From Thermoanaerobaculia bacterium (lineage in GTDB: Bacteria > Acidobacteriota > Thermoanaerobaculia > Gp7-AA8): a stretch of 35,322 bases of DNA. The DNA lies in the NCBI GenBank assembly GCA_049586115.1, contig JBAVBF010000589.1, positions 1 through 35,322 of the forward strand. Reading direction: 5' to 3'. The notes beneath the pieces are model-generated. The model did not search any database. It saw nothing but the letters and a program-made list of their open reading frames with translations, and was not told where the DNA came from. The position numbers and the translations under genes are program-made. Of the stretch, positions 13,523 to 32,326 are shown piece after piece. The number at the start of each line of letters is the position of its first letter. Position 1 is the first letter of the stretch.

Positions 13523-13596
13523 GAGCCGCGTGCTAGAATCCGCGGGCCGTTTTAGAGGCTGCTTCTCTTGAAAAAGACGTAGTTGCCTTGATCGGG

Positions 13597-13672
13597 CGAG
13601 CGTAGCTCAGTTGGTAGAGTAGGAGCTTCCCAAGCTTGGTGTCGAGGGTTCGAGTCCCTTCGCCCGCTCCAT
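13597..13672 (+). tRNA. tRNA-Gly, anticodon CCC (13630-13632), CCA encoded
   Basis: Manual cloverleaf fold. D arm is GCTC/AGTTGGTA/GAGT. Anticodon loop is TTCCCAA. T arm is GAGGG/TTCGAGT/CCCTT. The 3' end CGCCCGC-T-CCA matches my recollection of the E. coli glyU 3' end. Two stem mismatches are present (A4:C69, G27:G43). Confidence 0.85.
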
Positions 13673-13784: not shown

Positions 13785-13834
13785 TTCTCACGCGCTTCCT
13801 CCATGCACGATGGTGCGGACCACCGAGGTCACGC

Positions 13835-14053
13835 ATGGAGAAACGGATCTCATCGACCGACGCGGCGCGCCTCATTGGGATACGCACGCAGACGCTCGCG
13901 AAGTGGCGTTGGCAGGGCAAGGGCCCAGCCGGTTGGGTGCGCATCTCTCCGACGCACGTCACATATCCGCTCAGCGCGATCGAGAAGTTCATCGCAGAGT
14001 GTGGAGCCGCCGAGGAGCCGAAGGAAAAACGGGGGTGCGGCGATGAACCTTAA
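13835..14053 (+). CDS. Excisionase-family / HTH_17-type DNA-binding protein
   Basis: MEKRISSTDAARLIGIRTQTLAKWRWQGKGP...ISPTHVTYPLSAIEKFI has the typical short Xis/AlpA-like helix-turn-helix. Overlaps the integrase start by 11 nt. Confidence 0.7.
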   Translation: MEKRISSTDAARLIGIRTQTLAKWRWQGKGPAGWVRISPTHVTYPLSAIEKFIAECGAAEEPKEKRGCGDEP

Positions 14054-15224
14054 GGGGCTTCACTACGACGCGCGCCGGAAGCGAGCGGTCCTCGACGGCT
14101 ACACGCGAGATACGGACGGAGAGCGGCGCCGACGGCAGCGAACGATCGAGAACATCACGAAACGCGAGGCCGTCGAGGAGTGGAAGAAGTTCCGCGCCGA
14201 CCTCGAAAGCGGTCGCGCAATCGACGGTCCCGTGACCCTGAAGCAGTTCGTCGATCTGTTCTTCGAGGACATTGGTCAAAACCACCAGGAGAGCACGCGC
14301 GCGACACAGCGAACGCTTCTCGATTGCCAGATCTTGCCGTACTTCGGCAAGACGGTGCTCGAGGAGATTTCGAGCATCCGCGTCGCGAAGTTCATCGCCA
14401 ATATGAAGAAGAACGGTCGCGCTCCGAGCTACATAAACAACGCCGTGCGACTCATCAAGATGCTGCTCCGGCAGGCCGTCGAGCGCGATGTCATTGCCGA
14501 CTATCCCCTCAAAAAGAAGGTGCCGAAAGAGAAAGAGAAGCCGCTCCGGCTGGAACTCACGCGCGATGAACGCGACCGGTTCTTTGCGGTATTTGATGAT
14601 GAAGCAGGATTCCGTCGATACCTCGACGACAAGCGCAAACTTGGCCCTGTCACGCAGAGCGAGAGCTTCAAGAAACCTCGACGCTTTGGCGGCGGACTGC
14701 GAGGCGACAGCAAGGCTGCGGGTATAGCCTTCGCTCGCTTCCAGGAACTTCGCGAGCTGTTCGTTGTCGCCGTGGATACCGGCCTGCGCAAGGGTGACCT
14801 GCGGAACCTCCGATGGAATCAGATCGATTTCGCCGAAGGCTTCATCCGGGTCCTGATGCAGAAGACATCGTTGGAGGCAGAGATCCCGATCTCGGCTGCC
14901 TGTCGCGCGGCGCTCATCGCCATTGAATCGCGATGCGGTCGCGCCGAGTACGTGTTCCGCGACGGAACCGGCAAGCGGTATTCACAGACGAGGATTCGAC
15001 GCACGTTCGTGCTCGCGAAGAAGCTTGCCGGGATCACTCGACGCTTCCGACCTCACGATCTTCGGCACACCTTCGGGTGCCGGCTCGCCAGTAGCTCGGT
15101 CGGGCTGCAGATCATAGCGAAGGCGCTCGGGCATACGACCACGCGCATGGCCGAGCGCTACGCGCGGCCATCGGAGGAAGCGATGCGCATCGTCGTCCGG
15201 GCGCTCGATGCGGATCCGCTCTAG
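14043..15224 (+). CDS. Tyrosine site-specific integrase
   Basis: Catalytic signature present: GLRKGDLRNLRW (Arg I), HDLRHTFGCRLA (H-x-x-R), LGHTTTRMAERYARP (His and Tyr nucleophile). The ATG at 14043 (MNLKGLHYD) is preferred over the long Arg-rich track extension from 13803. Confidence 0.9.
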   Translation: MNLKGLHYDARRKRAVLDGYTRDTDGERRRRQRTIENITKREAVEEWKKFRADLESGRAIDGPVTLKQFVDLFFEDIGQNHQESTRATQRTLLDCQILPYFGKTVLEEISSIRVAKFIANMKKNGRAPSYINNAVRLIKMLLRQAVERDVIADYPLKKKVPKEKEKPLRLELTRDERDRFFAVFDDEAGFRRYLDDKRKLGPVTQSESFKKPRRFGGGLRGDSKAAGIAFARFQELRELFVVAVDTGLRKGDLRNLRWNQIDFAEGFIRVLMQKTSLEAEIPISAACRAALIAIESRCGRAEYVFRDGTGKRYSQTRIRRTFVLAKKLAGITRRFRPHDLRHTFGCRLASSSVGLQIIAKALGHTTTRMAERYARPSEEAMRIVVRALDADPL

Positions 15225-15371: not shown

Positions 15372-15521
15372 TCATCGCTCCACTCGCTGAAGAGTGGTCC
15401 CGCATTTGTGGCATCGTCCGCCGTTCGAACATCCCCACGAGAGATGCCAGCGGCACTTGGGACACCAATAGGGGATCTGGTCGATGACACGTCCGCAGCG
15501 CACGCAAACTGGCCTGGGCAT
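15372..15521 (-). CDS. 49-aa zinc-ribbon mini-protein (below the track size cut-off)
   Basis: Manual translation gives MPRPVCVRCGRVIDQIPYWCPKCRWHLSWGCSNGGRCHKCGTTLQRVER. It has three CxxC pairs plus one extra Cys. A strong SD (GGAGGAG) lies 5 nt upstream of the ATG. GC3 is about 67% by my count. Divergent from the radical-SAM operon. Confidence 0.45.
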   Translation of the reverse strand: MPRPVCVRCGRVIDQIPYWCPKCRWHLSWGCSNGGRCHKCGTTLQRVER

Positions 15522-15786
15522 TAGCTCCTCCGCGTTCCGACGAAATCGTACACCCCTCCGCTTCCTTCAGCTCGTCGAGCGAATTACTTCGTGAAAAAAG
15601 GGAAATGTCGCTGCTGCTAAGTTAAGATCCACTTGGTCCAGCAAAAATGGGAGTACCGGGTGTGACAAAGAGTTCCACGGAGATCGCTACAAATCCTCCG
15701 TGAACAAGAAATGCGCATTCTAGGATCGGAAACGAGTTCGTGTTGTATCGCAACGTCGATCCTTCTTTTTCGATGATGGAGCAAGG
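15522..15786. promoter_or_regulatory. AT-richer divergent intergenic region, presumed promoter/operator region for the Zn-ribbon ORF and the radical-SAM operon
   Basis: 265-nt non-coding gap between divergent starts. Contains a 6-bp inverted repeat ACGGAG-N13-CTCCGT (15676-15700) and one TTCCGAC copy (15535-15541). No convincing -35/-10 pair could be assigned. Confidence 0.3.
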
Positions 15787-16458
15787 ATGGAAGACAGGGA
15801 CGACTGCTGGCCCGAGGATCCAGACGTACTCCACATCGCCCATCGCGCCGATCGGTGTGCGGTTCTCGGGCCCGGCATGCGGGCCGTAATTTGGGTGCAG
15901 GGCTGCAAACTCCGGTGCCCAAGCTGCATCGCACCACAGTCTCTGCCCTTTCACGGCGGATATGTCGTCGGCGTTGATGAGCTGGCCCGAGATCTCGCTG
16001 CGCTTCCGATTGACGGCGTCACCATTTCTGGAGGCGAACCGTTCGAGCAGGCCTTGGCACTCTGCCGCTTGATTCGCTCGACACGCATTCGCAGAGATGT
16101 CTCGTTCCTCTGCTACACCGGATATGAATTCGAGCATCTGCAGCGCCACGGAACTCAAGCCCAACTCGAATTGATCACGGAACTCGATCTGTTGATTGAC
16201 GGCCCGTACGTCGAAGGACAACACGGGGAAGACCTCTGGCGCGGATCGGCGAATCAGCGCATCCATTTCCTGTCGGACCGCCACACGCGAGGAATTCTGG
16301 ATCGTGCCTCAGATGCGTCCCTGATCGAAGCGACGGTAACCTCCGACGGGTCTCTCTTTTGGATGGGCATACCCCCAAAAGGCTTCACGCGAGACTTGCT
16401 ATCACGACTCGCGGCTCAGGGGATTACTTTCGAACATCGAGGAGCCTACGATGAGTGA
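15787..16458 (+). CDS. Radical SAM enzyme of the NrdG/PflA-activase-like (4Fe-4S single-cluster) type
   Basis: GPGMRAVIWVQGCKLRCPSCIAPQ carries CX3CX2C (C40, C44, C47; nt 15904-15927), preceded by the GPGxR...QGC block typical of activases. ISGGEP SAM-binding motif is present. About 220 aa. SD GGAG lies 5 nt upstream. Confidence 0.8.
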   Translation: MEDRDDCWPEDPDVLHIAHRADRCAVLGPGMRAVIWVQGCKLRCPSCIAPQSLPFHGGYVVGVDELARDLAALPIDGVTISGGEPFEQALALCRLIRSTRIRRDVSFLCYTGYEFEHLQRHGTQAQLELITELDLLIDGPYVEGQHGEDLWRGSANQRIHFLSDRHTRGILDRASDASLIEATVTSDGSLFWMGIPPKGFTRDLLSRLAAQGITFEHRGAYDE

Positions 16459-17269
16459 CTCTCCCAAGTGTTCCACACCGAGTCTGAGGGATCAGGAAGA
16501 GCAGCGCCTCCGTGCGGAGCGTGAACGGCTCGCGGCGGAGGAGAACGCACGTCGCCATGCGGAAGCTGAGAGGATCCGACGTGAGCGGATCGAGCAACTC
16601 CGTGTGATCGAGGAGCTTCGAGCAAGGCATCGGGAGGCTCTCGAGAACCTTGCAGACCTCCAGGGAGAGGTTGAGGCGCTCAAGTCGGATGCCGTGACCA
16701 TGCGTTGGAAGCACGACGCTGTGGACGCTCTCGAAACAGCGGTGGCACGTGCAGCGCGGGAGATTGAGGCCGGAGCATTCGATGTGCCGATCTCGAAGCT
16801 TCGATCGATGAAGAAGACCATCCTTGTGATAGTCGCTGAGGCGCAAGAGCGCCAACTTGCCGAGGATCGTCGTCAGTACATCGTCAATGGTCTGGTGACG
16901 GTCTTAGGGCAGATGGGGTTCGTACTCTCTGCGGACAGCCCTCGGCACGGGGATGCGTCGCCATCCTCCGACGTCATGCTCAGTGCACGCAGACTCGGGG
17001 GTGGGGCTGTTGCTGTTTCGATCCCTCTCGAAGGAGAAGTGTTGTACGACGTGGAGGGATACGCGAAGCGCAAGGAGACACACTTCGACGGGGCCGTCAC
17101 GGCAACGTGCGACGAAGCTGAGGCTGAGATCCAGCACGTGCATGACGCGCTAGCTCGGGATTTCGGTATTCAGATGAGCGAGCTCACTTGGGCAGGGAAG
17201 CCGGTTCGAAGCGACAAGCAGGCCGAAGCGCTCCCGCGCGGTGGTAGCCGTGGTCGCGAACGAACGTAG
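16451..17269 (+). CDS. Coiled-coil protein with a C-terminal alpha/beta domain, unknown family
   Basis: The N-terminal 130 aa or so are strongly charged heptad-like sequence (EEQRLRAERERLAAEENARRHAEAERIRRERIEQLRVIEELRARHREALENL). The start overlaps the radical-SAM stop by 8 nt, with GGAG 6 nt upstream. Confidence 0.7.
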   Translation: MSDSPKCSTPSLRDQEEQRLRAERERLAAEENARRHAEAERIRRERIEQLRVIEELRARHREALENLADLQGEVEALKSDAVTMRWKHDAVDALETAVARAAREIEAGAFDVPISKLRSMKKTILVIVAEAQERQLAEDRRQYIVNGLVTVLGQMGFVLSADSPRHGDASPSSDVMLSARRLGGGAVAVSIPLEGEVLYDVEGYAKRKETHFDGAVTATCDEAEAEIQHVHDALARDFGIQMSELTWAGKPVRSDKQAEALPRGGSRGRERT

Positions 17270-17283
17270 TCGGAGATAAACGT

Positions 17284-19131
17284 GTGACTGTTTCTGGTGC
17301 TTGGATTCGCGATCTTGACACCCACCTCTTGCGAGGCAAGCAGGTACTTCTGTACGGGAACGTATTCGATCAACAGTTGATCAACGGACGGTACAACAGG
17401 TTCCGTGAGGCGTTGGAGGCGTACTTCACGGGGGTCGGATACAAGGTGATCGGGCACTACGATCTTGTCGACGGACTCACCCTTCAAACACCGGCGGCAC
17501 GCCAACTCGTCGACGAGATCATGTCCCGCGCCCTCGGCGGTTCGCCAGCGGCGTCTTCCGCGACGAACGTCCAACCCCAACGCTCGATGCCTCGCGCGAC
17601 AGTTGTCGACATGTCCCTGTTCCGCCCCGAACAGGCGCTCGACGTCATCCGACACGTGCTTGCGCAAGCCGAGCACCCGGCGGCGTTCATCGTTGACTTC
17701 TCAGACAAGTTAACGGGCGACCCGGACCGTTTCTCGGAGGATGAGCGGAGATGGCTCGTATTACTTCGAAAAGCGCTGGACTCCGCTGAATTTGTCCGAA
17801 CGGGTGAAGCCAAAGGACGCAGGAATGCCTTGGTGACCGTCGCTGGCCAGCTGGCTGGCGTGCCGGCGTGGTTTTACAAGGAGAATCCCCTTGTTGCGCT
17901 CGTACACGTCGCACAGCCGAGCCGCCACGAGCGGGAGTTCTTCATTCGTCAGTTTTCAAAGCAATTCTACGGAGGCACCGAGCCGAGCGATCTGGCACAA
18001 GAGATCGTCACAGAATTTGCCGACCTCACCGACGGCATGACGGTTTGGGATCTCGAGGGGATACGGCGAGCGTCGCTTCATGAAAAGCTCTCTATTGCAC
18101 GGCCTAAAGCATTGGTCGACTACTACCGATACGGAGCCGTCGAAGACCCGTGGGAACAACTCGACTCTGCCAAGATCCAGTCTGCTGCTAGCGCGATTGC
18201 CGTGGACGTGTTGGGACAGGATGCTGCCGTGGCGGCGGTCATCGACATGCTGGTGGCTGCGCGGGTCGGTCTAACGCTATCTGACTCCTCAGCCAAAGCC
18301 GGAAAGCCGAAAGGGGTGTTCTTCTTCGTTGGGCCTACTGGTGTGGGAAAGACAGAACTGGCCAAGGCCCTCTCGAAACTGGTGTTTGGCGAGCAGGATG
18401 CCCTCGATCGCTATGACATGAGTGAGTATGCAGAGAAGCACGCGGCTGAAAAGCTGGCGGGGTCGCCGCCTGGGTACGTTGGCTACGACGAAGGTGGCAG
18501 GCTAACGAACCGCATGATCAAGAAGCCATTCAGCTTGCTTCTGTTCGATGAGATCGAGAAGGCTGATCCTCTTGTCATGGACAAGTTCCTGCAGATTCTC
18601 GAAGACGGTCGACTCACGGACGCGAAGGGACAGACCGCCTACTTTTCGCAATCGGTGATCATCTTTACGAGCAACATCGGCTCAGACACCGCCATGGACT
18701 GCGTACCGGATGACAGTGGTCACCCGACCTACGAGACGCTTCGTACGCATTACCTAAATGCCGTCCGCCAACACTTCACACACAAGATTGGGCGACCAGA
18801 ACTGCTGAACCGTTTCGGCGACAACATACTTGTGTTTGACATGTTGCGGCCGGCGTACATCGAAGGCATTGCTCACAAGTTTCTGCAGAAGCTCGCCGCT
18901 TCTGCGGCCTTGCGATACGGCATCGCGGTGACATTTGAGCCGTCGGTCCTGGACGCGGTACGGCAGTGGATGCAGGACGGAAGTAACATGCAGTTTGGTG
19001 GGCGTCGAATCAAGACGCTGCTCGATGCCACGATCGTCTTGGCGCTGAATCGCTGGGTTTTTGTGGAGAAGCCAAAGAGGGACACGGCCGTCCGAGTCGC
19101 CTGGAAGAGTGGTTCAGTAGTGATTTCATAA
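17284..19131 (+). CDS. Two-domain AAA+ protein: degenerate classical-AAA-like N-domain + intact ClpA/ClpB D2-type ATPase with D2-small domain
   Basis: The C-terminal half has GQDAAVAAVIDML, Walker A FFFVGPTGVGKTELAKAL, GSPPGYVGYDEGG, Walker B LLLFDEIEKA, sensor-1 IIFTSN and ELLNRF. In the N-terminal half, VLLYGNVFDQ replaces the P-loop and AAFIVDFSD replaces Walker B. GTG start with GGAG 8 nt upstream. Confidence 0.9.
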   Translation: MTVSGAWIRDLDTHLLRGKQVLLYGNVFDQQLINGRYNRFREALEAYFTGVGYKVIGHYDLVDGLTLQTPAARQLVDEIMSRALGGSPAASSATNVQPQRSMPRATVVDMSLFRPEQALDVIRHVLAQAEHPAAFIVDFSDKLTGDPDRFSEDERRWLVLLRKALDSAEFVRTGEAKGRRNALVTVAGQLAGVPAWFYKENPLVALVHVAQPSRHEREFFIRQFSKQFYGGTEPSDLAQEIVTEFADLTDGMTVWDLEGIRRASLHEKLSIARPKALVDYYRYGAVEDPWEQLDSAKIQSAASAIAVDVLGQDAAVAAVIDMLVAARVGLTLSDSSAKAGKPKGVFFFVGPTGVGKTELAKALSKLVFGEQDALDRYDMSEYAEKHAAEKLAGSPPGYVGYDEGGRLTNRMIKKPFSLLLFDEIEKADPLVMDKFLQILEDGRLTDAKGQTAYFSQSVIIFTSNIGSDTAMDCVPDDSGHPTYETLRTHYLNAVRQHFTHKIGRPELLNRFGDNILVFDMLRPAYIEGIAHKFLQKLAASAALRYGIAVTFEPSVLDAVRQWMQDGSNMQFGGRRIKTLLDATIVLALNRWVFVEKPKRDTAVRVAWKSGSVVIS

Positions 19132-19144
19132 CGAGAGGTGAACG

Positions 19145-19894
19145 ATGGCGAGCTTGTACGATTCGATCCGCTCGATGGAAAGGGATGGCAAGATTAGCAA
19201 GGCCACCGCGGATGCCTTCACGGGTACGGCTGACCGTCAGATGCAGATGCCGCCGCTTCATGCGGTCGCTTATGATCCTCAATTCATCTGCGTCCTACTG
19301 GATCAGTCAGGATCCATGAAGCCGTTGCGCGAGGCAGTAATAGAGGGGCATGCCGAGGTTATAAACGCATTCCGCAAGAGCGCCACGTGTAGGAACAACG
19401 CGTTGTTTATCGCGCAGTATGTGTTCAGTGGGACGAGCGAACCGCTCAACGGCTTTCGACCTCTATCGGAGCATGGGAACGATGACGTTGTCCGTCTGAC
19501 GGAATCGAACTACACACCGGCGGGTGTGACAGCTCTCTATCAGACGGTTCATGGAATGCTGCAGGACACGCTCATGGTGGTAGATCACTGCGGCCGCAAC
19601 GAAGGACTCGCGCCGAGCATTTATATCATGCTCGTAACGGATGGCGACGATACGGAGGGCAAAGTCGATCCAGCGGACATTCGCCGTTGTCTCACTGAGA
19701 TGCGTGACAAGGGCACACTTGGTATCGCGGGCGTGCTGGGCGTATTGAGCGACAAGCTGACCCCGCAACAGCTTGAAAACATTAGGGCGACACTCGGATT
19801 TGATGTGGTGATACCCGCGGGCGCGACTGCGAAGGAGCTTCGTGACGCAATGGGTCAGTTCTCTAAAAGCATTGCGGACAGGCTGGGTAAGTAG
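19145..19894 (+). CDS. vWA-domain protein (TerY-like) with a complete MIDAS motif
   Basis: FICVLLDQSGSM (DxSxS), GVTALY (Thr) and IMLVTDGDD (Asp). GAGAGGTG SD upstream of the ATG. Confidence 0.85.
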   Translation: MASLYDSIRSMERDGKISKATADAFTGTADRQMQMPPLHAVAYDPQFICVLLDQSGSMKPLREAVIEGHAEVINAFRKSATCRNNALFIAQYVFSGTSEPLNGFRPLSEHGNDDVVRLTESNYTPAGVTALYQTVHGMLQDTLMVVDHCGRNEGLAPSIYIMLVTDGDDTEGKVDPADIRRCLTEMRDKGTLGIAGVLGVLSDKLTPQQLENIRATLGFDVVIPAGATAKELRDAMGQFSKSIADRLGK

Positions 19895-19922
19895 CGCGCT
19901 CTGTTGGGGAAAGAGGTGGGAT

Positions 19923-21131
19923 GTGCGGTTTGAGTTTGAAGATCGAAGCGGTGAGTACGAGTGCGAGACGCTTTCGAAACTCGGCGAGGGTGGCGAAGGT
20001 GTGATTTATATCTTGGATGACCAGGCGCTTGCGAAGGTCTACCATGCCAAAGAGCTGAATCGACGTCGCCAAGAGAAGGTTCTCGCACTCTGCGCGAGAT
20101 ACAACCATTTCGCCGGTGTGTTCGGAGCGGCGCGTTTCGCGTGGCCGGAGGCGCCGGCGATCTCCGCTGATATTCACGAGATTGTTGGTTTTCGGATGGC
20201 ACATCTCGGAGCCTATCCCAGCCTCGAACAGGTGCGCTACGACTCCTCAGAACGTCAGTTTCGCACGGCTGGTGGCGAGCGGCTAGACGATGACAAAGCG
20301 ATAGCGGTGGCCTATTCGCTCTTCGATGCCCTAGAACGCCTCCATACGGCTCGTATCGTGCTCGGGGACCTAAACCCCACAAATGTGTTGGTGGACATAC
20401 ATTCCGCGAATGCATTGATTGTCGACATCGACTCATGCCACGTTGAGGGGTTCCCGTGCCCTGTATTCAAGGCCGAGTATCTCGATCCAATGACAGAGGC
20501 GGCCGGGAAGCAATCGGACGGGTCTCTGAACTACACCTCGTCCAGTGACTACTATGCAGCAGCAGTTATGACATACGAATTGATCGTCGGGAGCCTGCCC
20601 AGCTTCTTTCGTTCGGAGCAGGGCCTCGGCGCGCTAGACCTGAAGGCGAAAGGCGTGAGCCTTCTGGCCCACGTTGAGGATCCTACGTTCCTTTCCTCGC
20701 ACGGCGTGCGTCTTCGGTCACATCCTTTGAACGACGGACTGTGCCGGCGCTTGCAAGAGGTCAAGTTACTCGACGGAGGACGTCTATACCGATACTGGCA
20801 CGACGTGTTGGTGAAGGGACGGCGGTACAGCCTCCTCGAGCGGCTGCCGGTGTCGGATCCGCGTAATCCGACACACCGGCTGCTTGCCAAGAAGGGGTCA
20901 CGGACCGTTGTCGACGTGATTCGAGATGGACAGTCGCCGCGTGCCGTCGTGCCCTTGCAGGCGGATCCCATTTTTTTTCAGGAGGAGGATGTTCAGACAA
21001 TCGTCGGACTGACACGACGCAGCTCGAGGCTCCGTGCGACGTTCGATGGTGTAGATCCGATTGGATTCCAGCTGTTCGTCGAAAACCTAGGCTTCGACTA
21101 TCGTGCGCTGCTCGAGAGAGGCACAGGATGA
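19923..21131 (+). CDS. Ser/Thr protein-kinase-like protein (TerY-P-type)
   Basis: Gly-rich loop LGEGGEGVIY, Lys in LAKVY, and a catalytic-loop variant IVLGDLNPTNVLV. DIDS occupies the DFG position. GTG 19923 is the first start after the vWA stop, with AAGAGG 6 nt upstream. The track alternative, ATG 19842, overlaps the vWA gene by 53 nt. Confidence 0.75.
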   Translation: MRFEFEDRSGEYECETLSKLGEGGEGVIYILDDQALAKVYHAKELNRRRQEKVLALCARYNHFAGVFGAARFAWPEAPAISADIHEIVGFRMAHLGAYPSLEQVRYDSSERQFRTAGGERLDDDKAIAVAYSLFDALERLHTARIVLGDLNPTNVLVDIHSANALIVDIDSCHVEGFPCPVFKAEYLDPMTEAAGKQSDGSLNYTSSSDYYAAAVMTYELIVGSLPSFFRSEQGLGALDLKAKGVSLLAHVEDPTFLSSHGVRLRSHPLNDGLCRRLQEVKLLDGGRLYRYWHDVLVKGRRYSLLERLPVSDPRNPTHRLLAKKGSRTVVDVIRDGQSPRAVVPLQADPIFFQEEDVQTIVGLTRRSSRLRATFDGVDPIGFQLFVENLGFDYRALLERGTG

Positions 21132-22360
21132 CGGGCTTTGATGAGCGACGCCGTGTTGCGAGCCACTTCGCGCTGTGTCATGACTCTTCGACGGCGCTAC
21201 CGTTCACCGTCGGCGGCGTGACACAGCATGGATGGCACGCGGACTCGCGGAACAATCAAGACGCCATGGGGCTCTGGATTGAACAAGGCTTCATCGTAGC
21301 CGTTGTGTGTGATGGGTGCGCCAGTCCGGCGAGCGCGAGCAAGAATTCCGTGTCGCTCAACGAGGTGGGGGCAAAGCTGACGTGTTTGGCCGCACTACGG
21401 GTTGTGCGTGAGCAGATTCGCATAGGGACGCCTCTGGACGAGTCATTGTCCTTAGCGGTTGTCGAGGGGGTACGGCGGATGGCCCGGCAAGTGGTCGGTA
21501 TCGGACTCCATCGATCCGAGCCAAGAGCGCTTCGCGAGAAGATCTTGCTCGAGTACGTCATGAGTACGTTGCTTCTTGCAGTGGTCACCGCGGAGAACTA
21601 CCTCGTCTTCGCGGTGGGCGATGGATTCATACGTGTGAATGATACCAACCATGATCTGAGCCAAATGAGCGGACACTATCTCGCCAATGAATGGTTTCCC
21701 GCCGCCGAGCGTCGTAGGTCTGCCGTTGAGGTTTCGTCCATCGAACCCGAGGCGGCTGTACCTCCGCGGTGGCTCCAAGTGGGGTCGACCGCAGAGCTCC
21801 ACAGTCTTGTCTTGGCGTCCGACGGAGCAGCTGATCTCTTTTCCAGTCAGAATAACCTCCTCGGTGAACTTCAGAAACGCTCGGCAACGCGTGAGTACTC
21901 GAGCGGATATGACCCTCTGTTTTTTCGGGAGTTTCGCGTGCTCGCGAGCCGGCTGCCTGTGGGGCCGAGGAACCAAGATACCGATGATCAGACGCTCGTG
22001 GCGATTCGACGGTTGCCGCAATCTGAGAAGGGCGATCTCGCTGAAAAGGAGCAACAAGGCAGCGCGACAACGGAAATGCTTGCCGCTCCCACCATCGAGC
22101 GCTTTCCCGCGGTCGAACAACTGCCCGCTGGCGAAGCCCTTCCCAACGTCGAAGCGCTTCCCAACGTTGATCCTGTTTCCACCTTAGAGCCTCTTCGCAG
22201 CGTCGAGTGCATTCCGGCCGCCGAATCTGTTCCCGACTCCGAACCTGTTCCCGGCGCCGAAGTCGTCCTCAATGAACTAATAGAGATATCTGAAGCCGGG
22301 GTTGAAAAGGACAAACCAACCGATCGCGAGGTACCTGATGCTGACAGTGTCGGCGAGTGA
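21128..22360 (+). CDS. PP2C-family protein phosphatase with a hexapeptide-repeat acidic tail
   Basis: Metal-binding blocks NQDAMG, VVCDGC, FAVGDGF, LASDGAADL and DDQTLVAI. ATGA overlap with the kinase stop. Confidence 0.8.
   Translation: MTGFDERRRVASHFALCHDSSTALPFTVGGVTQHGWHADSRNNQDAMGLWIEQGFIVAVVCDGCASPASASKNSVSLNEVGAKLTCLAALRVVREQIRIGTPLDESLSLAVVEGVRRMARQVVGIGLHRSEPRALREKILLEYVMSTLLLAVVTAENYLVFAVGDGFIRVNDTNHDLSQMSGHYLANEWFPAAERRRSAVEVSSIEPEAAVPPRWLQVGSTAELHSLVLASDGAADLFSSQNNLLGELQKRSATREYSSGYDPLFFREFRVLASRLPVGPRNQDTDDQTLVAIRRLPQSEKGDLAEKEQQGSATTEMLAAPTIERFPAVEQLPAGEALPNVEALPNVDPVSTLEPLRSVECIPAAESVPDSEPVPGAEVVLNELIEISEAGVEKDKPTDREVPDADSVGE
22097..22258 (+). repeat. Nine tandem 18-nt (hexapeptide) repeats inside the PP2C tail
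   Basis: In-frame units ERFPAV EQLPAG EALPNV EALPNV DPVSTL EPLRSV ECIPAA ESVPDS EPVPGA. The DNA units are clearly related (gaagcccttcccaacgtc / gaagcgcttcccaacgtt ...). Confidence 0.8.
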
Positions 22361-23882
22361 CATTTCGAACGCGGGCGGACTATTGGCGGCAATCTCTGCG
22401 AAGTCAGCTGACTTTGTGGCTGAGCTGCTATCGGGAACCCGGACTCGCCTTCCGGCAGCCGCGGCTCGAGTCACGAAGCTCGTGACACATGCCAACCCGC
22501 ACCTGGACGAGTACTTCGCGGCACTAGTGTTCCGAGCGCTGTTGCCGTCTTCGAAGCGTGGCCTCGTGCTTGGAGAGGCCGTCCTGGGATCGCGAGACAA
22601 CGATTCGCTTGCACAATCGACGTGGCCGGACGCGGCCGTATTCGGCATCGGCGCGACTGAGAACGGGGGCGCACGGCCACTAATCTTGTACGACGAGCAC
22701 ACGCATACTGGTGTCAAGCGAAAGGCCTCATCCTGCTCGGAACTGACGTTGAAGCGCGTCGTGGAGGGCTTCCCCCATGCATTGCCGCCGGAACTCTTCT
22801 TTGTATTCGGCGAGATAGATCACATCGACGCGAATGGCGGCGCTCACCCGCAGCAGCTGGCTAACGCCGTCAAGTGGCTCCATGACATCAGTTTTATGGT
22901 GCACGCAGGCGCAACACCCGCCGAGAGGATCTCAGAGCAGTTGTCGTTTATCTGGAAACAGGCCCTTGTGGATGCGGCTGTCGTTGCTGCTTTGTACGTC
23001 CTTCGGGAGCGGATCGACCTCAAGAAGCGGGACGCGTGGAAGGACTATGCCGGTGACTCGCTTCGACACTACAAAGAGCACACCCTGCTAAGGGAGCGCC
23101 CTCAGTTCGAGGCGTGCTATCAACGGCTGACGCAGAACGTCCTTGGATTCCCGGGTCGTGGTCCCGTATGGTTGACAACACGTGGCGCCGATGGCGTTTT
23201 GGTGCCCAGGCTCGATTCGCATAAACGGGAAATACCTCAACGACTCGTCATGCCTTGGCTTAGCCGCGCATGTGTGGAGTGCTGGGGGCCGCAACTGGGT
23301 CATGTCATTCTCGCCCATTTCTGGGAGGCGACGTTGATGAACCAGCTGTCGTTCGTTCGAATTAAGGATGAACTGACGACAGTTCTTGGAGAAGGTCGAG
23401 TGGATGTGGATGTCGACACACCCGTTGGGGAGCTTCAGTTTCGAACTCTCTCGGGCATCGCCGTGAAGCCCGCTGGATCAGCCGACGGAAACTCAACGGT
23501 GCAGCCGTGGGTATTGTTCTACCGTCCACGAATTGACATAGAGGCACCGAAGCCACCCATCTCCAACTTCATAGCAAGCAAGAATCAGGGTGTTGGCATC
23601 TTCGCGATTGTTAACCCACGGTCGGATACATTGGTGCTTTCGCGCGGAGGCGGTGTCTCAGATTCCGTTTGGGAAGCTGTAATCGGCCAGCTCGTTGAGC
23701 GCGAAGGTGACTCGGACGCGAAGGACGTCCCTGGGTGCTGGCATATCACTCGGGATGAGAAGGGCAAGCCGGCAGATTTTCTGCTGAACGGGAACAAGGC
23801 TCACCAGTATGTTCCTAGGTCGGCGCTTCGGGATGTGAACAGTCTGACCCACCTCGTAAAGGCCGCGTACAGACCAACGTGA
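22338..23882 (+). CDS. Large protein of uncertain family; N-terminus resembles MYG1/UPF0160 (DHH-superfamily) metal-dependent phosphoesterases
   Basis: KLVTHANPHLDEYFAALVFRALLP and FGIGATENGGARPLILYDEHTHTG resemble, from memory, the MYG1 blocks GTHxGxFHxDE and DVGGxYD...YDHHQ. ATG 22338 has GAGG 6 nt upstream and overlaps the PP2C gene by 23 nt. The CDS call is solid; the family call is tentative. Confidence 0.55.
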   Translation: MLTVSASDISNAGGLLAAISAKSADFVAELLSGTRTRLPAAAARVTKLVTHANPHLDEYFAALVFRALLPSSKRGLVLGEAVLGSRDNDSLAQSTWPDAAVFGIGATENGGARPLILYDEHTHTGVKRKASSCSELTLKRVVEGFPHALPPELFFVFGEIDHIDANGGAHPQQLANAVKWLHDISFMVHAGATPAERISEQLSFIWKQALVDAAVVAALYVLRERIDLKKRDAWKDYAGDSLRHYKEHTLLRERPQFEACYQRLTQNVLGFPGRGPVWLTTRGADGVLVPRLDSHKREIPQRLVMPWLSRACVECWGPQLGHVILAHFWEATLMNQLSFVRIKDELTTVLGEGRVDVDVDTPVGELQFRTLSGIAVKPAGSADGNSTVQPWVLFYRPRIDIEAPKPPISNFIASKNQGVGIFAIVNPRSDTLVLSRGGGVSDSVWEAVIGQLVEREGDSDAKDVPGCWHITRDEKGKPADFLLNGNKAHQYVPRSALRDVNSLTHLVKAAYRPT

Positions 23883-23890
23883 GAGGTTTT

Positions 23891-24052
23891 ATGTCTGTCA
23901 TACAGTGTGCAGCATCGGGATGCACCGCAACCGAGAAGTCTGGACGGATTTTTGCGCGGTGCGCAAAATGTGGAGCATGGTGGTGTGGCAGACACGCAAC
24001 GAAGGGGAATCCCTGCCCTGGTTGCCGCCACAAGTATCTGGTTGGCAAGTAG
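23891..24052 (+). CDS. 53-aa zinc-ribbon mini-protein (below the track size cut-off)
   Basis: Manual translation gives MSVIQCAASGCTATEKSGRIFARCAKCGAWWCGRHATKGNPCPGCRHKYLVGK. Cys pattern is Cx4C...CxxC...C..H...CxxC. GAGAGG lies 5 nt upstream of the ATG. The start is 8 nt after the preceding stop. Confidence 0.5.
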   Translation: MSVIQCAASGCTATEKSGRIFARCAKCGAWWCGRHATKGNPCPGCRHKYLVGK

Positions 24053-25486: not shown

Positions 25487-26431
25487 TCACTCGACCACGA
25501 CCATTGGCGGGCGCACGGAACCCTCGAGCTGCGTGCGGCGAACGACGCTGCGAACCAGCGCTTCATCACAGCCAATGACGAACCGCTCGCAGCGTGAGGC
25601 CATCGCGAGATTATTCTCGCGGACCTGTCCCTTGGTGAGTGGCAGGAAGTCGAGGCCCGTCCCGAGGTCGCCGATGAAAAGAGCGACGGAGCGGCTCAGG
25701 GGAATCATCTTGTGTGCACCTGGAGTCGCGAGACCGAAGCCTCGCATTCCGTGCTGCCAGTCACGCGGCGGAATCAGCAGCAGAGGAGCGTCCGTGAGGA
25801 TCAGCGACATGCGGGCTGGCGTCTCCGCCACGACCCAACGCATGTTGAGGAAGATCTCCGCGAGGTCACCACTCATCTGGATCATCGTCTTGATAATGTT
25901 CTGCCGGGGTTCGACGACGGTATATCCGCCGTCTCTCAGGAGTTCGAAGTCCTCCTCCGGTGTCACGTCCATCGTGGTGCCGGTCCGCGCCTCGAATTTT
26001 TCGTGCTGGATTCGTACATCGTCGACAGTCGTTGCCATCCGCCGCCCGAGCGCTTGAAACGCTCCATTCATCATCTCCCGCATCGCGCGGTCGAATTGCG
26101 GGACACGGGTATGCAGCAGCGCGCAGAACAGAGCCAGCACTTCGCGGTCATGATCCGTCGGTGCTTCGCGGCGCTCCAACTTACGGATCACCGGCTCGGC
26201 TTCACCCTCAATAGATGACAGGAAGGCCTCGACCTCCATCGACTTCTCGCCGGTCACCGCATCGTCGATGGCGTAGTAGTAGCGGCTGACGGCTGTGTTC
26301 TTCGGCGTCTGGGGACGAAACGCATTGCTGTCGCGATCGAAGACGGTGAACACGGAATCGCGCTGCCTGTCCGAAGTGAAGCCTGCAAGGTAGAACTCAG
26401 GCAGGTAGTGGTGCCGCTTCGGGGTAGTCAT
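25487..26431 (-). CDS. DUF4238-family protein
   Basis: The N-terminus MTTPKRHHYLPEFYLAGF matches the H-Y-(V/L)-P-x-F-Y-L-x-x-F hallmark I associate with DUF4238. About 314 aa from ATG 26431. The track ORF extension to 26656 is Arg/Gly-rich and implausible. Confidence 0.7.
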   Translation of the reverse strand: MTTPKRHHYLPEFYLAGFTSDRQRDSVFTVFDRDSNAFRPQTPKNTAVSRYYYAIDDAVTGEKSMEVEAFLSSIEGEAEPVIRKLERREAPTDHDREVLALFCALLHTRVPQFDRAMREMMNGAFQALGRRMATTVDDVRIQHEKFEARTGTTMDVTPEEDFELLRDGGYTVVEPRQNIIKTMIQMSGDLAEIFLNMRWVVAETPARMSLILTDAPLLLIPPRDWQHGMRGFGLATPGAHKMIPLSRSVALFIGDLGTGLDFLPLTKGQVRENNLAMASRCERFVIGCDEALVRSVVRRTQLEGSVRPPMVVVE

Positions 26432-26475
26432 TGCGGTCTCAAACAATCCGGCGTCGCGTGAGCATTTCGAGCAGC

Positions 26476-27021
26476 CTAGCCCACGTGTGAGGCAATGTAC
26501 GCTGCGACCGGTGCGGATCGGTCGACGCCCGCGCTGCAGTGTAGGAGCACCGGTTTCGGCAACTCTTTGAACGCCGCGAGCGCAACTTCGCGGACGGTCA
26601 ACAGCTTCTCCTCGATGGTGTCCCGTGACGACTTGCTGTGCTGGGGGTCTTCCCACGGGAGGTGCTGAATCTGAAACCGCGTCCGGTAGAACTCGATCAG
26701 GTTGTCCGTTCCGAGTTCCAGGTCCTTGTAGAACCCGACCTCGGTGTCACTCATCAGGCAAATGATGCTCTGTATGCCGCACACCTGAATCATGTCCGCC
26801 CACTCCGCGACGTAAGGAGCCGCATCGGGCGTCAAGGTCCGCGCACTCCCACCGAATCGTTTGTGGTAACGGAGCGGACGCTGCGAACATGCGAGCTGGC
26901 CGGGGATGATCCAAACGATGAGTTCGGACTCATCTCCGTCCTGCAGCCTCCGGCGAAGAGTTGCGAGCTCCCGCCGAATCGAAGCGGTGCGCTGGACGAT
27001 GTCGGCAGGCATGGTAGTCAT
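26476..27021 (-). CDS. Cys-based protein phosphatase (dual-specificity / PTP-like)
   Basis: HCSAGVDRS is the HCX5R(S/T) P-loop. A candidate general-acid Asp (LPWEDP) lies about 37 aa upstream. IIPGQLACSQRP is typical of DSP N-termini. Start taken at MTTMPADIV. Confidence 0.8.
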   Translation of the reverse strand: MTTMPADIVQRTASIRRELATLRRRLQDGDESELIVWIIPGQLACSQRPLRYHKRFGGSARTLTPDAAPYVAEWADMIQVCGIQSIICLMSDTEVGFYKDLELGTDNLIEFYRTRFQIQHLPWEDPQHSKSSRDTIEEKLLTVREVALAAFKELPKPVLLHCSAGVDRSAPVAAYIASHVG

Positions 27022-27350
27022 TGTCGCAAGCAGACGAACAACCGCGAAACACGGGTGATGAATGGAACGAGCCGCCGTACGACTTCTGAGCGAGGACGAG
27101 ACCGCCCGGTTGGTTGAGGCATGCACGAGCGATGAAGTCCTCGAAGTGAGCAGCATGGCGCATCGGGTCTGACCTCTCGCGACGTGTCGCCGCCGAAGGC
27201 GACGAAGTCCTCAGCGAGACCTTCCGGTTCATCTCAGGAGTCCTTGCTCCGAGGGTCGAAGCGATTCTGAAGATCGAGACTGCGGCGAACACCTTCTGGG
27301 TCGAGCCGTCGACGCTGACGGAGACTGAGCGTGAGCTTCTGCGGCAGCTT

Positions 27351-28832
27351 GTGGCGACGGCTGCTGACCCCGAGATAAAGGCGCGGTTCGCCGACTTCCT
27401 GTGGCTCGCAGCGCGCGATTGGAAATCCGGAGAGATCGCGGTCGACTCCTATCTGGAGTCGGCGCGCCGTCTAAGGGACCCGGAAAACTGGGCGGGCGCC
27501 GCACCGCGATATGAGCGTGCCGCGTCCCTTGCCGGCTCCCTCGGTCGCAAGAAGCAGCGCTACTTGGCGGTGATCGCTGAGATCGAGGCATACCTCACGG
27601 AACTCGATGCGACGGACCCGCTCTTCATGAGCTGTCGGCTCATGGAGATTCTGCTCGCGCAGAAGGAGGGCAATCGCGCGAAGTACGCGGCGCTCGCGGA
27701 GAAAGCGGCGCACGCGGCCGAGGCCCGCGGTAATTTCTATGTGGCGCAGTTCCACTGGGACCTCGCGGCGAAATGGCAGTCTGCCCTGGAGAATACTGAT
27801 GGCGTTCGCGCTGCGCGGATTGGTGCGGCCGAGACGCTCGTGAAGGAAGCCGAGAGCAAGACGGAAGGCGCCAATGCAAGCTTCCTTACGGCAGCGAGCG
27901 TGCTGCAGGGTGCGATAGCGATCCTGCAAAAACAGAGCGGCACGCAGGACCGTGTTAAAGAACTGTTCCGCCTCCTCAAGGAGTACGAGATCAAAGGCGT
28001 GAAGGAGCTCAAGCCGATCGGAGGCACGGTTGATCTGACCGATGTGGCGGAGTTGGCGCGACAGGAGGTTGCCGGCATATCACGTCCAGATGCGATATCC
28101 GGGATCGCAGCGATGGTCCGTTTCCCACGGCGCGAGAAGGTGAAAGCCGATGTGCGAAAGGCGGCGAAGGACGATCCCCTTCAGCACCTCTTCGGTGAGT
28201 CGCTCCTCGACGCAGATGGCGCGATCATCGCCGGCCGGGGATCGGTCGATCCGGAAGACGAAGGCGAGGACCGTTCCGTGCTCGCGCGGATGTATGAAGA
28301 TGTCGTCCGCACCTTCAGCTTCACGGCGCTCGGCCAGATAGACCCGGCGCGACGCCAAATCGTCGACGAACATGACATCCGCGAGGGTGACCTGTCCGTC
28401 ATTGTGCAGCGCAGCTGGTTCGTGCCGCCGGGGCGCGACCCACTCTTCTCGCGCGGCCTGCTCGCGGGCTTCGAAGGCGATTTCGCCGTCGCACTGCACC
28501 TGCTCACGCCACAGATTGAGGCAGCACTGCGATGGAATCTGCGCCGACGTGGCCATGTCACGACGCGACTGAATCGGGACGGATTCCAGGAAGAGATGGA
28601 CCTCAACCAGTTGCTTGCAGATGCTCCCGCCGGTGAGCTTCTGGGCGATGACTTGCGCTTCGCGTTGCAGGCACTCCTCACGAGCCGCTTCGGGTTCAAT
28701 CTGCGGAACAAGCTCGCGCATGGTTTGCTGGATATCGGCGCCATGTATTCGACGGTCGCGGAGTTCTTCTGGGCGGTCGTGCTCATGATCTGCGTGCGCA
28801 CAACGGTCACGGCTGAGCATCCATCGACGTAG
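27351..28832 (+). CDS. DUF4209-like protein with a C-terminal HEPN-type Rx4H motif
   Basis: The C-terminal FGFNLRNKLAHG contains the LRN motif I associate with DUF4209 and an Rx4H (RNKLAH). The N-terminal part is a long helical region. GTG 27351 is the first canonical start, although the frame is open from 27150. Confidence 0.7.
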   Translation: MATAADPEIKARFADFLWLAARDWKSGEIAVDSYLESARRLRDPENWAGAAPRYERAASLAGSLGRKKQRYLAVIAEIEAYLTELDATDPLFMSCRLMEILLAQKEGNRAKYAALAEKAAHAAEARGNFYVAQFHWDLAAKWQSALENTDGVRAARIGAAETLVKEAESKTEGANASFLTAASVLQGAIAILQKQSGTQDRVKELFRLLKEYEIKGVKELKPIGGTVDLTDVAELARQEVAGISRPDAISGIAAMVRFPRREKVKADVRKAAKDDPLQHLFGESLLDADGAIIAGRGSVDPEDEGEDRSVLARMYEDVVRTFSFTALGQIDPARRQIVDEHDIREGDLSVIVQRSWFVPPGRDPLFSRGLLAGFEGDFAVALHLLTPQIEAALRWNLRRRGHVTTRLNRDGFQEEMDLNQLLADAPAGELLGDDLRFALQALLTSRFGFNLRNKLAHGLLDIGAMYSTVAEFFWAVVLMICVRTTVTAEHPST

Positions 28833-29091: not shown

Positions 29092-29304
29092 ATGAAATTC
29101 AAAGCAACAATCGAATCAGCGACGCACAGCTATGACGTCGAATTTGACCTCGACGACCAGGCGACAGCACAGGCACGTCTGGCAGATGTACTCGGGGATA
29201 TCTCGAAGAGGTTTCTCCGAAAGGGCGAGCGCGCCGAGAAGCAGGGTCGTGCAATGAAGTCTGGTCCCGCCTCTCCGACCATGGCCGGGGGAGGTGCGAA
29301 ATGA
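29092..29304 (+). CDS. Small hypothetical protein (70 aa)
   Basis: GGAGGG SD lies 4 nt upstream. The stop overlaps the next start (ATGA). Confidence 0.6.
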   Translation: MKFKATIESATHSYDVEFDLDDQATAQARLADVLGDISKRFLRKGERAEKQGRAMKSGPASPTMAGGGAK

Positions 29305-30870: not shown

Positions 30871-30912
30871 GTGCACAACGCGTTTTCAACAATCAATCAA
30901 AGGAGGTGTGCG

Positions 30913-31890: not shown

Positions 31891-31892
31891 GT

Positions 31893-31919
31893 AGGGCCGG
31901 GCCGGTTCGTGCCGGCCCT
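31893..31919 (+). terminator. GC-rich hairpin immediately after the 30913-31890 gene
   Basis: AGGGCCGG / CCGGCCCT 8-bp stem with an 11-nt loop, starting 3 nt after the stop. No U-tract. Confidence 0.4.
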
Positions 31920-31963
31920 TCGTCCTGAGCCCCTGACCCGTTCAGCGGCTCACGAGGAATCTC

Positions 31964-32326
31964 ATGATCATCACCCTCTGCTTCGCCTTGGGCTGCTTTC
32001 TCGTAGTGGTCTCGCTGCCACTCGGCTCAGCGGGCGTCTCTGTTAGGCGTGTGGGAGCGTGTCTCATTCTGGGTCCGCTGGTCGCGTCCGTCCTGTGGGG
32101 AACGCTGAAGGTCGCGCTACAGGAGGGCGATGTGCGTGTGGGCCTGAGCGCCACCGTTGGCGTGATTGTCTTGAGCTTCGTGGCATATGCGGTTCTGAAG
32201 GTGCGGAAGCGCATGTCCTCCTCAGGCGGACAAGGAAAACGTATCGCGACCAAGCGACCGTACATCCACCAGCGCGGGCGCGACGTGATGACGTTCATTA
32301 AGGAACAGCTGAATCGCGATGAATAG
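31964..32326 (+). CDS. Small membrane protein (about 3 TM)
   Basis: MIITLCFALGCFLVVVSLPL, ACLILGPLVASVLWGTL and ATVGVIVLSFVAYAVL, followed by a basic tail. GAGGA SD. Overlaps the ATPase start by 8 nt. Confidence 0.65.
   Translation: MIITLCFALGCFLVVVSLPLGSAGVSVRRVGACLILGPLVASVLWGTLKVALQEGDVRVGLSATVGVIVLSFVAYAVLKVRKRMSSSGGQGKRIATKRPYIHQRGRDVMTFIKEQLNRDE

Follow-up and report, generated by a model that had tools for sequence, protein, structure and literature searches.

A candidate composite conflict system joining a TerY-P-like tetrad to a radical SAM, coiled-coil and AAA+ triad on a tRNA-Gly island

Introduction

TerY-P triads are regarded as phospho-switches that plug into other conflict systems. 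Contig JBAVBF010000589.1 of a Thermoanaerobaculia bacterium (assembly GCA_049586115.1), whose 35,322 nucleotides (nt) are referred to here as the window, carries at positions 15372-24052 a set of nine genes in which a triad of this kind stands beside a radical SAM enzyme (rSAM), a coiled-coil protein (X), a ClpB-type ATPase (AAA) and a protein with a predicted DHH-like fold (p7). Do these genes belong to a single system, and what would such a system do? As judged from its sequence, the locus is a modular composite of a module A (rSAM, X and AAA) and a module B (vWA, kinase and PP2C genes followed by p7). We put at roughly 55% the probability that the plus-strand block is one co-transcribed composite conflict system of two cooperating modules, probably directed against phages or plasmids and carried on a tRNA-Gly island.

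These triads were defined by Anantharaman, Iyer and Aravind (2012), and PMC11090510 credits Gao et al. (2020) with showing their anti-phage activity. TerY-P is described there as attaching to other conflict modules, namely CoCoNuT types II and III-A, and its kinase as being fused at the C-terminus to a Zn ribbon (CoCoNuT type) or to an OB fold (Gao type); a phosphorylation switch made up of vWA, kinase and PP2C was proposed for it (PMC11090510).

Results

A tightly packed block of eight genes

The block on the plus strand spans 15787-24052 and comprises eight genes; a divergent open reading frame (ORF), zr1, brings the set to nine. The features are as follows.

15372-15521, minus strand: zr1, Zn-ribbon ORF, divergent from the block
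15522-15786, no strand: divergent intergenic (control) region, 265 nt, 49.4% GC
15787-16458, plus strand: rSAM, first gene of the block
16451-17269, plus strand: X, overlaps rSAM by 8 nt
17284-19131, plus strand: AAA, GTG start, 14 nt after X
19145-19894, plus strand: vWA, 13 nt after the AAA stop codon
19923-21131, plus strand: kinase, GTG start, 28 nt after vWA
21128-22360, plus strand: PP2C, ATGA overlap with kinase
22338-23882, plus strand: p7, 23-nt overlap with PP2C
23891-24052, plus strand: zr2, 8 nt after p7

A first-pass annotation made from the letters of the sequence had proposed this arrangement, and all its coordinates, overlaps and gaps were exact on recheck. It had placed Shine-Dalgarno (SD) sequences at nearly every start; sites of the GGAG/GAGG type were found 5' of all nine. 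The divergent Zn-ribbon ORF does lie across a 265-nt AT-richer region, the GC content of which is 49.4% as against about 59% in the genes. This region contains no sigma-70 consensus and no inverted repeat, scans for promoters, terminators and inverted repeats giving results not above those for shuffled sequences. Terminator-like sites within the block were likewise not above shuffles. The operon geometry suggests that all eight genes are co-translated.

The same nine genes were found in a JGI contig, L008, at 94-99.6% amino-acid (aa) identity. Synonymous changes outnumber non-synonymous ones between the two loci (26 to 11 in rSAM, 18 to 5 in AAA, 12 to 3 in zr2). Because synonymous changes dominate, and because the large products have homologues elsewhere, we take the ORFs to be real genes. 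The GTG start of the kinase at 19923 is also called in L008, a 99%-identical relative, and about 91% of alignment columns in the control region are identical between the two.

The radical SAM, coiled-coil and AAA+ genes form a recurrent triad

The first product, rSAM (223 aa), matches Pfam Fer4_12 at 2.4e-30, so that the radical SAM call of the first-pass annotation stands. Its best NCBIfam model is NrdG (TIGR02491), with 100.1 bits under a cut-off of 126.1; the PflA model scores 45 bits under a cut-off of 232, and the nearest solved structure is PFL-AE, the pyruvate formate-lyase activase (1e-13). The cysteines of the CX3CX2C motif (C40, C44, C47), G82-G83-E84 and G28-P29-G30-x-R32 are invariant in the family (27 sequences); the protein also keeps GGEP, its motif set includes the GPGxR loop, and a C-terminal region reading WRGSxNQ...WMGIPPxGF is specific to the family. 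These features place rSAM among predicted enzymes of the glycyl-radical-activase (NrdG/PflA) type. Activases of the PFL-AE type act on an extended protein loop, and the DGxGxR loop has a role there. Relatives of rSAM number in the thousands at about 50% identity and are mostly annotated as NrdG, the JGI label being 'anaerobic ribonucleoside-triphosphate reductase activating protein'. No NrdD is encoded in the window, nor is any cognate glycyl-radical enzyme bearing RVxG[FYW] at its C-terminus.

X (272 aa) begins with MSxSPK(Y), continues with a variable charged coiled coil, as had been called at first pass, and ends in an alpha/beta domain where Gly156, Cys220, Trp247 and Arg253 are invariant in the family alignment. 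It gave coiled-coil matches only when compared with PDB sequences. Alignment with hhalign gave 99.3% between X and the X' proteins of plasmid/type-C loci, and X always adjoins either rSAM or AAA. A reading of X as a classical glycyl-radical protein was considered and rejected as unproven, the invariant Gly standing without an RVxG[FYW] context.

AAA (615 aa) has two tiers, D1 (about residues 1-290) and D2 (residues 292-599). D2 carries the Walker A motif GPTGVGKT, the Walker B motif FDEIEKA, the pore loop GYVG and a D2-small domain; it matches Pfam AAA_2 (1.3e-46) and, over 292-599, the D2 rings of ClpB, ClpC and ClpA in PDB (1e-55). The score against the ClpB equivalog is 244 bits, under a cut-off of 1232, and Pfam finds neither Clp_N nor AAA_lid_9. 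Residues 1-290 have no sequence match and no Pfam family, and an exhaustive search collected this N-domain family into 447 clusters at 50% identity. In an AlphaFold2 (AF2) model of the N-domain (pLDDT 79), Foldseek gave a probability of 1.0 to Rpt, PAN, Vps4 and p97-D1. Since its P-loop reads GNVFD instead of GxxGxGKT, D1 is best described as a pseudo-AAA domain, and the earlier pseudo-AAA/ClpB-type call is borne out by the AAA_2 and PDB matches of D2 and by the modelled AAA+ fold of the N-domain.

The three genes were always found adjacent, in Actinomycetota, Cyanobacteriota, plasmids of Proteobacteria and many metagenome contigs. Actinomycetota and many metagenome contigs have them as rSAM-X-AAA, other lineages and plasmids as X-AAA-rSAM. 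Plasmid loci include a five-gene cluster in Acinetobacter pNDM1_010055 (L172:1722-11441) and Moellerella pW18-2-a (L171:1481-11434) that encodes a Mokosh MkoA-like helicase (320 bits), a PIN-domain protein, an X-like protein, a ClpB-like AAA and rSAM. On the Acinetobacter NDM plasmid this cluster adjoins a viperin-like radical SAM gene with a VakA-like kinase, and on the Moellerella conjugative plasmid it adjoins ArdA. A single IMG/VR contig was found with the X-AAA-rSAM triad (L177:6311-10258, IMGVR_UViG_3300010355_002158), the remaining viral rSAM matches being phage NrdG next to NrdD.

A parallel triad, here called type-2, consists of a gene of a different, NrdG-like rSAM subfamily followed by genes for a coiled-coil protein of about 470 aa and a double classical AAA protein of about 900 aa (PF00004 twice). 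It occurs in Streptomyces atratus, Chloroflexota, Muribaculaceae, Saprospiraceae, Kordia and about ten metagenome loci (for instance L012:9946-14614, L014:2091-7074 and L015:9971-14877, also L016, L024 and L045) and may be an autonomous undescribed system. A PADLOC scan of the homologues that L175 encodes of its coiled-coil protein and its AAA gave no system-level match; loci of the L012 type were outside that scan.

A private fourth gene follows vWA, kinase and PP2C

In the vWA protein (249 aa) the MIDAS residues D53-x-S55-x-S57, T129 and D166 are invariant in eight homologues. The window protein has no Pfam match and no useful one among PDB sequences; its L002 homologue matches PF00092 weakly, and hhalign connects the family to the Pfam-positive, TerY-like VWA of actinobacterial triads (94.1%, E 1.3e-7). 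Together with the invariant MIDAS residues, this alignment upholds the original assignment to the TerY type. The kinase (402 aa) scores 38.4 bits against Pfam Pkinase, over a cut-off of 31.7, and its catalytic residues are conserved (G-loop, K38, D149/N154, D168xD170). Pfam finds Pkinase alone in this protein, which lacks CxxC motifs and is fused to neither a Zn ribbon nor an OB fold; its PADLOC matches, PD-T4-6 and MkoA, are to the kinase region. PP2C (410 aa) matches Pfam PP2C_2 at 1.8e-17, with D45, D62-G63, D232-G233 and D286-D287 invariant and its metal-binding Asp residues thus kept. Both enzyme calls of the first-pass annotation are thus over Pfam thresholds, with invariant catalytic residues. 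The tail of PP2C (22000-22360, about residues 300-410) is acidic and Pro-rich with short repeats of the SEPVP/GAEPVP type, the number of which differs between the window and L008 by way of an 18-aa indel.

The fourth protein, p7 (514 aa), has 26 homologues among 5.8 billion proteins, all of them unannotated and derived from Brocadiae, Myxococcota, Anaerolineales and metagenomes. Of the 11 best Foldseek matches of its AF2 model (pLDDT 92.6) in PDB, nine are DHH-family proteins (best E 5e-4, probability 0.89, but TM no higher than 0.18-0.33), among them PPX1, RecJ/Cdc45, NrnA and family-II PPase. Residues H51, H55, D57, E58, E120, H121, D164, N484, N486 and H489 are invariant, and the N-terminal H-x3-H-x-D-E motif and a D-E-H motif are reminiscent of MYG1 signatures. 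The DHH, DHHA1 and UPF0160 models of Pfam matched none of the 26 members even at E 5, and a profile search against PDB sequences was empty. Of the earlier description of p7 as a MYG1/DHH-like protein, a putative DHH-like fold is kept on the strength of the model; membership in MYG1 gained no profile match. By its modelled fold, p7 is a putative metal-dependent phosphoesterase.

In all contexts examined, covering eight lineages, p7 lies directly 3' of vWA-kinase-PP2C, and the four genes are referred to below as the tetrad. A p7 homologue of 794 aa from a Logan contig (P0021) has an N-terminal extension of about 280 aa that resembles the kinase of the tetrad, includes a catalytic-loop-like motif, HxxxLGNxxPxxF, and looks like a natural fusion of kinase and p7. 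What stands upstream of the tetrad varies and is often an NTPase of one kind or another: a STAND NTPase in L001, an SNF2/DUF6094 protein in L003, a Cas3-like DEAD helicase in L176, a coiled-coil protein and a double classical AAA in L175, the rSAM-X-AAA triad in the window and L008, and nothing relevant in L173, L174 and probably L006. The last of these holds the closest relative of p7, and no AAA C-terminus was seen in the 105 nt available 5' of its tetrad. No relatives of p7 were found in viral contigs. In L175 (3135-11491) the coiled-coil/AAA pair and tetrad are succeeded by a gene for a NERD protein and by another vWA-like/kinase set.

The two Zn-ribbon mini-ORFs called at first pass hold on weak Pfam matches and are, on the sequences compared, lineage-specific. 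zr1 (49 aa) is a double Zn ribbon with sub-threshold matches to DZR_2 (6e-05) and DZR; it is 94% identical at the amino-acid level in L008 and absent from the other related loci. zr2 (53 aa), translationally close to p7, has a weak zf-AN1 match and appears to be under purifying selection, given its 12 synonymous and three non-synonymous changes relative to L008. Just 5' of vWA, L173 (3115-3282) and L174 (2822-2989) have a 55-aa ORF in which CxxC occurs four times. It is not homologous to zr1 or zr2, and Zn-ribbon mini-ORFs recur sporadically around tetrads.

Phospho-signalling genes accompany the ClpB-type triads

Is the meeting of the two modules at the window an isolated event? Module A loci were collected with rSAM as the scan query. 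Much of the resulting listing consists of genuine NrdG loci, which served as controls, and the counts given here are among the matches listed. NrdD was present in 37 non-viral loci, 25 of which had at least 4 kilobases (kb) on both sides; in control loci, 18 of 28 NrdD-like neighbours carried the RVxG[FYW] motif. Loci flanked by 4 kb or more on each side were then scored for a Ser/Thr kinase within 10 kb, with the following outcome.

ClpB-type triad loci: 10/10 with a Ser/Thr kinase
Type-2 triad loci: 0/8
NrdD-linked, genuine NrdG loci: 0/25
Other rSAM loci: 4/26

The total for loci not of the ClpB type is 4/59, and one of these four, L092, is itself a triad locus, its AAA+ gene being truncated where the retrieved stretch begins. 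Since the kinase, PP2C, vWA and FHA genes of distant loci were recognised with hidden Markov models (HMMs) built ad hoc, a subset being verified with Pfam, and since several census loci are mutually related, the ratio of 10/10 to 4/59 is indicative and not a formal statistic. PP2C, vWA and FHA accompany seven, five and four, respectively, of the ten ClpB-type triads.

The modules that bring in the kinase are of several kinds. VWA-PP2C-kinase lies directly 5' of the triad in Amycolatopsis (L009), Streptomyces (L010), Kitasatospora (L011), the P0043 contig, L096, L111 and L123; Zn-ribbon-FHA with PP2C and kinase accompanies it in L119, L134 and L162, and kinase-FGE-sulfatase in L109 and L004. 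GAP1-N2, DO-GTPase2 and HSP70-like genes occur with the triad in L011, L092, L090 and the Geminocystis plasmid L170. In Kitasatospora sp. NPDC002965 (L011:1769-20465) one co-directional array runs from a CHAT protease-like gene to VWA-PP2C-kinase-rSAM-X-AAA-HSP70-like-DO-GTPase2-GAP1(N2/M/C), joining the triad to one of the GTPase-centric GAP1-N2 systems of Kaur et al. (2020).

The first-pass annotation had asked whether the genes outside the vWA-kinase-PP2C triad are linked to one another and to triads of the TerY-P type. Both linkages were found: rSAM, X and AAA always occur together and p7 always after vWA-kinase-PP2C, and the arrangement VWA-PP2C-kinase-rSAM-X-AAA recurs in Amycolatopsis, Streptomyces, Kitasatospora and metagenomes. 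The broader proposal of an expanded TerY-P system is supported as regards linkage, with the refinement that the locus comprises two modules that also occur apart.

A further case bears on the juxtaposition. In L175 a type-2 coiled-coil and double-AAA pair, without rSAM, lies directly upstream of the p7 tetrad. Because this pair is unrelated to that of the window and takes the same position, an AAA+/coiled-coil partner of the tetrad seems to have arisen twice, which argues for a functional reason behind the juxtaposition seen in the window.

The island and its other genes

The locus had been placed on a tRNA-integrated island among defence-type genes, and such a setting was observed. Two features precede the system.

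13596-13671, plus strand: tRNA-Gly(CCC), found with ARAGORN; probable integration site of the island
13803-15224, plus strand: tyrosine integrase, Pfam Phage_integrase (7.6e-30) and Phage_int_SAM_3

L008 shares the order tRNA, integrase, system. Identity between the two is 97.6% in the system, 87.5% in the integrase and 77% in the flanking chromosome; since the system is so much closer than the chromosome, the block has moved more recently than the hosts diverged. Upstream of the tRNA are ordinary chromosomal genes (GGDEF, pentapeptide, ankyrin, symporter, glycosyltransferase, epimerase). No repeat of the tRNA 3' end of at least 14 nt, such as would mark an att site, is present in the window.

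Beyond the system, a DUF4238 protein with a weak DUF4238-Pers match in PADLOC is encoded at 25487-27156 (minus strand), with a dual-specificity-phosphatase-like ORF upstream of it on the same strand; a DUF4238 gene also follows the system in L008. The gene at 27351-28832 (plus strand) is strongly homologous (464 bits) to PDC-S39 (DUF7380/DUF4209), which is in PADLOC as a candidate system of one gene. Three tightly packed ORFs without a family match (29301-30092, 30076-30870 and 30871-31890, plus strand) are followed by a HerA/MAD8-like ATPase gene (32319-33905, plus strand), and 29301-33905 may be another defence cassette.

Comparison with known systems

Does the locus correspond to a system already described? 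Scans of all nine products against Pfam, NCBIfam and PADLOC v2 gave no system-level match; in particular, no system catalogued in PADLOC v2 matched the full gene set, and X, p7, the window vWA and the N-domain of AAA have no family in any of the three. In the searchable literature we found no paper combining TerY-P with radical SAM, a prior mention in Anantharaman et al. (2012) being possible, and none combining radical SAM, ClpB and defence; titles on Mokosh with radical SAM or Fer4_12 with defence include nothing on this triad.

With TerY-P the window shares stand-alone vWA, PP2C and Ser/Thr kinase genes in one mobile operon. It differs in the order vWA-kinase-PP2C, in a vWA too divergent for Pfam and in a kinase without a fused Zn ribbon or OB fold, Zn ribbons being present only as separate mini-ORFs; it also adds p7 as a strictly linked fourth gene and the rSAM/coiled-coil/AAA+ triad in front. 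No match named TerY-P was returned by PADLOC v2 for the window triad or for the canonical VWA-PP2C-kinase triads of actinobacteria. As the canonical triad is also unmatched, PADLOC v2 may lack TerY-P models or hold narrow ones.

Like NrdG and PflA, the window rSAM is a small partial-barrel protein with an N-terminal CX3CX2C motif, a GPGxR loop and GGE, and PFL-AE is its nearest structure; unlike them, it falls under the family cut-offs, has no glycyl-radical enzyme nearby, carries an extra conserved C-terminal region and belongs to a family whose genes show strict linkage to coiled-coil and AAA+ unfoldase genes, and occurs in strict aerobes. AAA shares with ClpB/Hsp104 the D2 ring, Walker A and B motifs, GYVG pore loop and D2-small domain, but has neither Clp_N nor the M-domain, and its D1 is a pseudo-ATPase of a private family. 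Partial HMM matches to Dodola DolB (1.6e-19) and PDC-M37B (2.6e-31) cover residues 289-476 or so, the ATPase core; no neighbouring gene matched the models of their partners, DolA and M37A, the partners of AAA at the locus being rSAM and X. As for p7, its modelled two-domain fold finds its best PDB matches among DHH/DHHA enzymes (RecJ, NrnA, PPX1, family-II PPase), though at low TM-scores; it has no DHH, MYG1 or UPF0160 profile match, and its family is private to TerY-P-like tetrads.

Relatives of the triad in Kitasatospora, Streptomyces, Geminocystis and metagenomes lie in operons with GAP1-N2, DO-GTPase2, HSP70-like and vWA-PP2C-kinase genes, but the window has no GAP1 or GTPase genes. Kaur et al. 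(2020) described GTPase-centric conflict systems with GAP1-N2 in which kinase/PP2C/vWA or HSP70 themes appear, and the text of that paper mentions no radical SAM or ClpB-like component for them (PMC7159879).

Discussion

The comparisons support the view that triad and tetrad at the window amount to a TerY-P-type switch with new partner modules, as far as predicted products and gene order can tell. Catalytic residues are kept in the kinase, PP2C, rSAM, the D2 ring of AAA and p7. A vWA protein with an intact MIDAS would bind a target or partner, and the kinase and PP2C, both predicted to be active, would form a phosphorylation switch. Once this switch is thrown, p7 would degrade nucleic acid or nucleotide; we take it as the effector because the tetrad, to which it is private, has no other enzyme that is not regulatory. 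In module A, a hexameric ClpB-type AAA+ protein with a dead upper ring would thread or remodel a protein, and rSAM would abstract hydrogen from, or otherwise modify, the protein presented by this motor. A protein is favoured over a small molecule as the rSAM target because activases of this type act on an extended protein loop. The most likely target would be X, at its invariant Cys or Gly: X is never separated from rSAM and AAA and has both invariant residues, which makes it the best candidate for a substrate or adaptor. The kinase/phosphatase pair would gate the rSAM step or be gated by it. The effector role of p7, the place of X as rSAM substrate and the direction of signalling are inferred.

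The chance is substantial that rSAM, coiled-coil protein and AAA+ together represent an independent, novel type of module. A further-reaching idea, which we offer tentatively and consider rather unlikely, is that the triad is an unrecognised immune module, in which the unfoldase would feed X or a captured polypeptide of the invader to the activase-like rSAM, and radical chemistry on a backbone or Cys would be the switch or killing step under the control of Ser/Thr phosphorylation, p7 being a second effector directed at nucleic acid. The chemistry could be an O2-dependent cleavage, a crosslink or a Cys-to-formylglycine-type oxidation.

Several observations weigh against the block being one cooperating defence system. 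Each module occurs without the other, five of the seven tetrad lineages examined have no AAA+/coiled-coil partner of any kind, and the triads pair with many other partners. Since the modules occur apart and with varied partners, a physical or functional link between them at the window is unproven. As the nine-gene set was found only in the window and in the near-identical island L008, the full combination counts as one evolutionary event. The ad hoc nature of the models behind the census points the same way, and so does the moderate fold match of p7, with TM about 0.18-0.33 and no sequence-profile support, low TM-scores being expected for a two-domain hinge protein such as its model depicts. 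In X, the residue after the invariant Gly is F, L or M; no RV precedes this Gly, which has the look of a helix cap and not of a classical RVxG[FYW] glycyl-radical motif. The defence role itself we infer from gene content and context.

The most serious competing explanation, possible if on balance unlikely, is that two independent systems, rSAM-X-AAA and a TerY-P-like set with p7, lie side by side and are co-transcribed while remaining functionally autonomous. Unrelated systems are routinely juxtaposed in defence islands, the tetrad is found alone or with other neighbours in L001, L002, L003, L006, L173/L174 and L176, and the count of 0/8 for kinases near type-2 triads implies that such triads can be self-sufficient. 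That explanation sits less easily with the junction between the modules, where vWA starts 13 nt after the AAA stop codon behind an SD sequence and without a terminator, or with the association of ClpB-type triads with kinases (10/10 against 4/59 in controls), which involves three different phospho-modules. The analogous coiled-coil and AAA pair that precedes another p7 tetrad in L175 also tells against autonomy, as does the fact that module A has no obvious toxic effector of its own.

Alternatively, the locus might be a non-immune mobile module for regulation or proteostasis, in which stress- or development-linked Ser/Thr signalling would go together with a dedicated chaperone and a protein-maturating rSAM, in the manner of multicellular actinomycetes and planctomycetes. 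In its favour, the products show no recognisable nuclease, pore-forming or NADase domain, proteins of the ClpB type are classical chaperones, and many triad loci are in Actinomycetota, beside GAP1-N2/DO-GTPase/HSP70 genes whose role is predicted (PMC7159879). We consider this improbable in view of the integrase/tRNA island with its PDC-S39, DUF4238 and HerA-like genes and of the presence of the triad on conjugative and NDM plasmids, beside a Mokosh-like helicase with PIN, viperin-like and ArdA genes, as well as on one IMG/VR contig. Phyletically the distribution is patchy, conservation is higher in the island than in the host chromosome, and the highly variable partner modules are typical of conflict systems. 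It is most improbable that rSAM is an ordinary NrdG and an accidental neighbour of the other genes. The JGI name of its homologues, ribonucleotide reductase activating protein, and NrdG as its best NCBIfam model would favour this; however, its 100 bits are short of the cut-off of 126, the window has no NrdD, whereas genuine NrdG loci of the same scans carry one, its WMGIPPxGF region is its own, its linkage to X and AAA is strict, and many of the hosts are strict aerobes (Amycolatopsis, Streptomyces).

The locus and its relatives give the phospho-switch of TerY-P type two undescribed conserved partners: a private family of putative DHH-like hydrolases, always encoded by the fourth gene of a triad subfamily, and a widespread rSAM-X-AAA triad, which is nearly always accompanied by Ser/Thr kinase, PP2C and vWA or FHA genes and thousands of whose rSAM genes are currently mislabelled as NrdG. 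To our knowledge, viperins are the only radical SAM enzymes known in prokaryotic immunity, and they act on nucleotides. Should the triad prove defensive, activase-type radical SAM chemistry on proteins would enter prokaryotic immunity, and the locus would provide a tractable eight-gene model for the coupling of phosphorylation, unfolding and radical chemistry.

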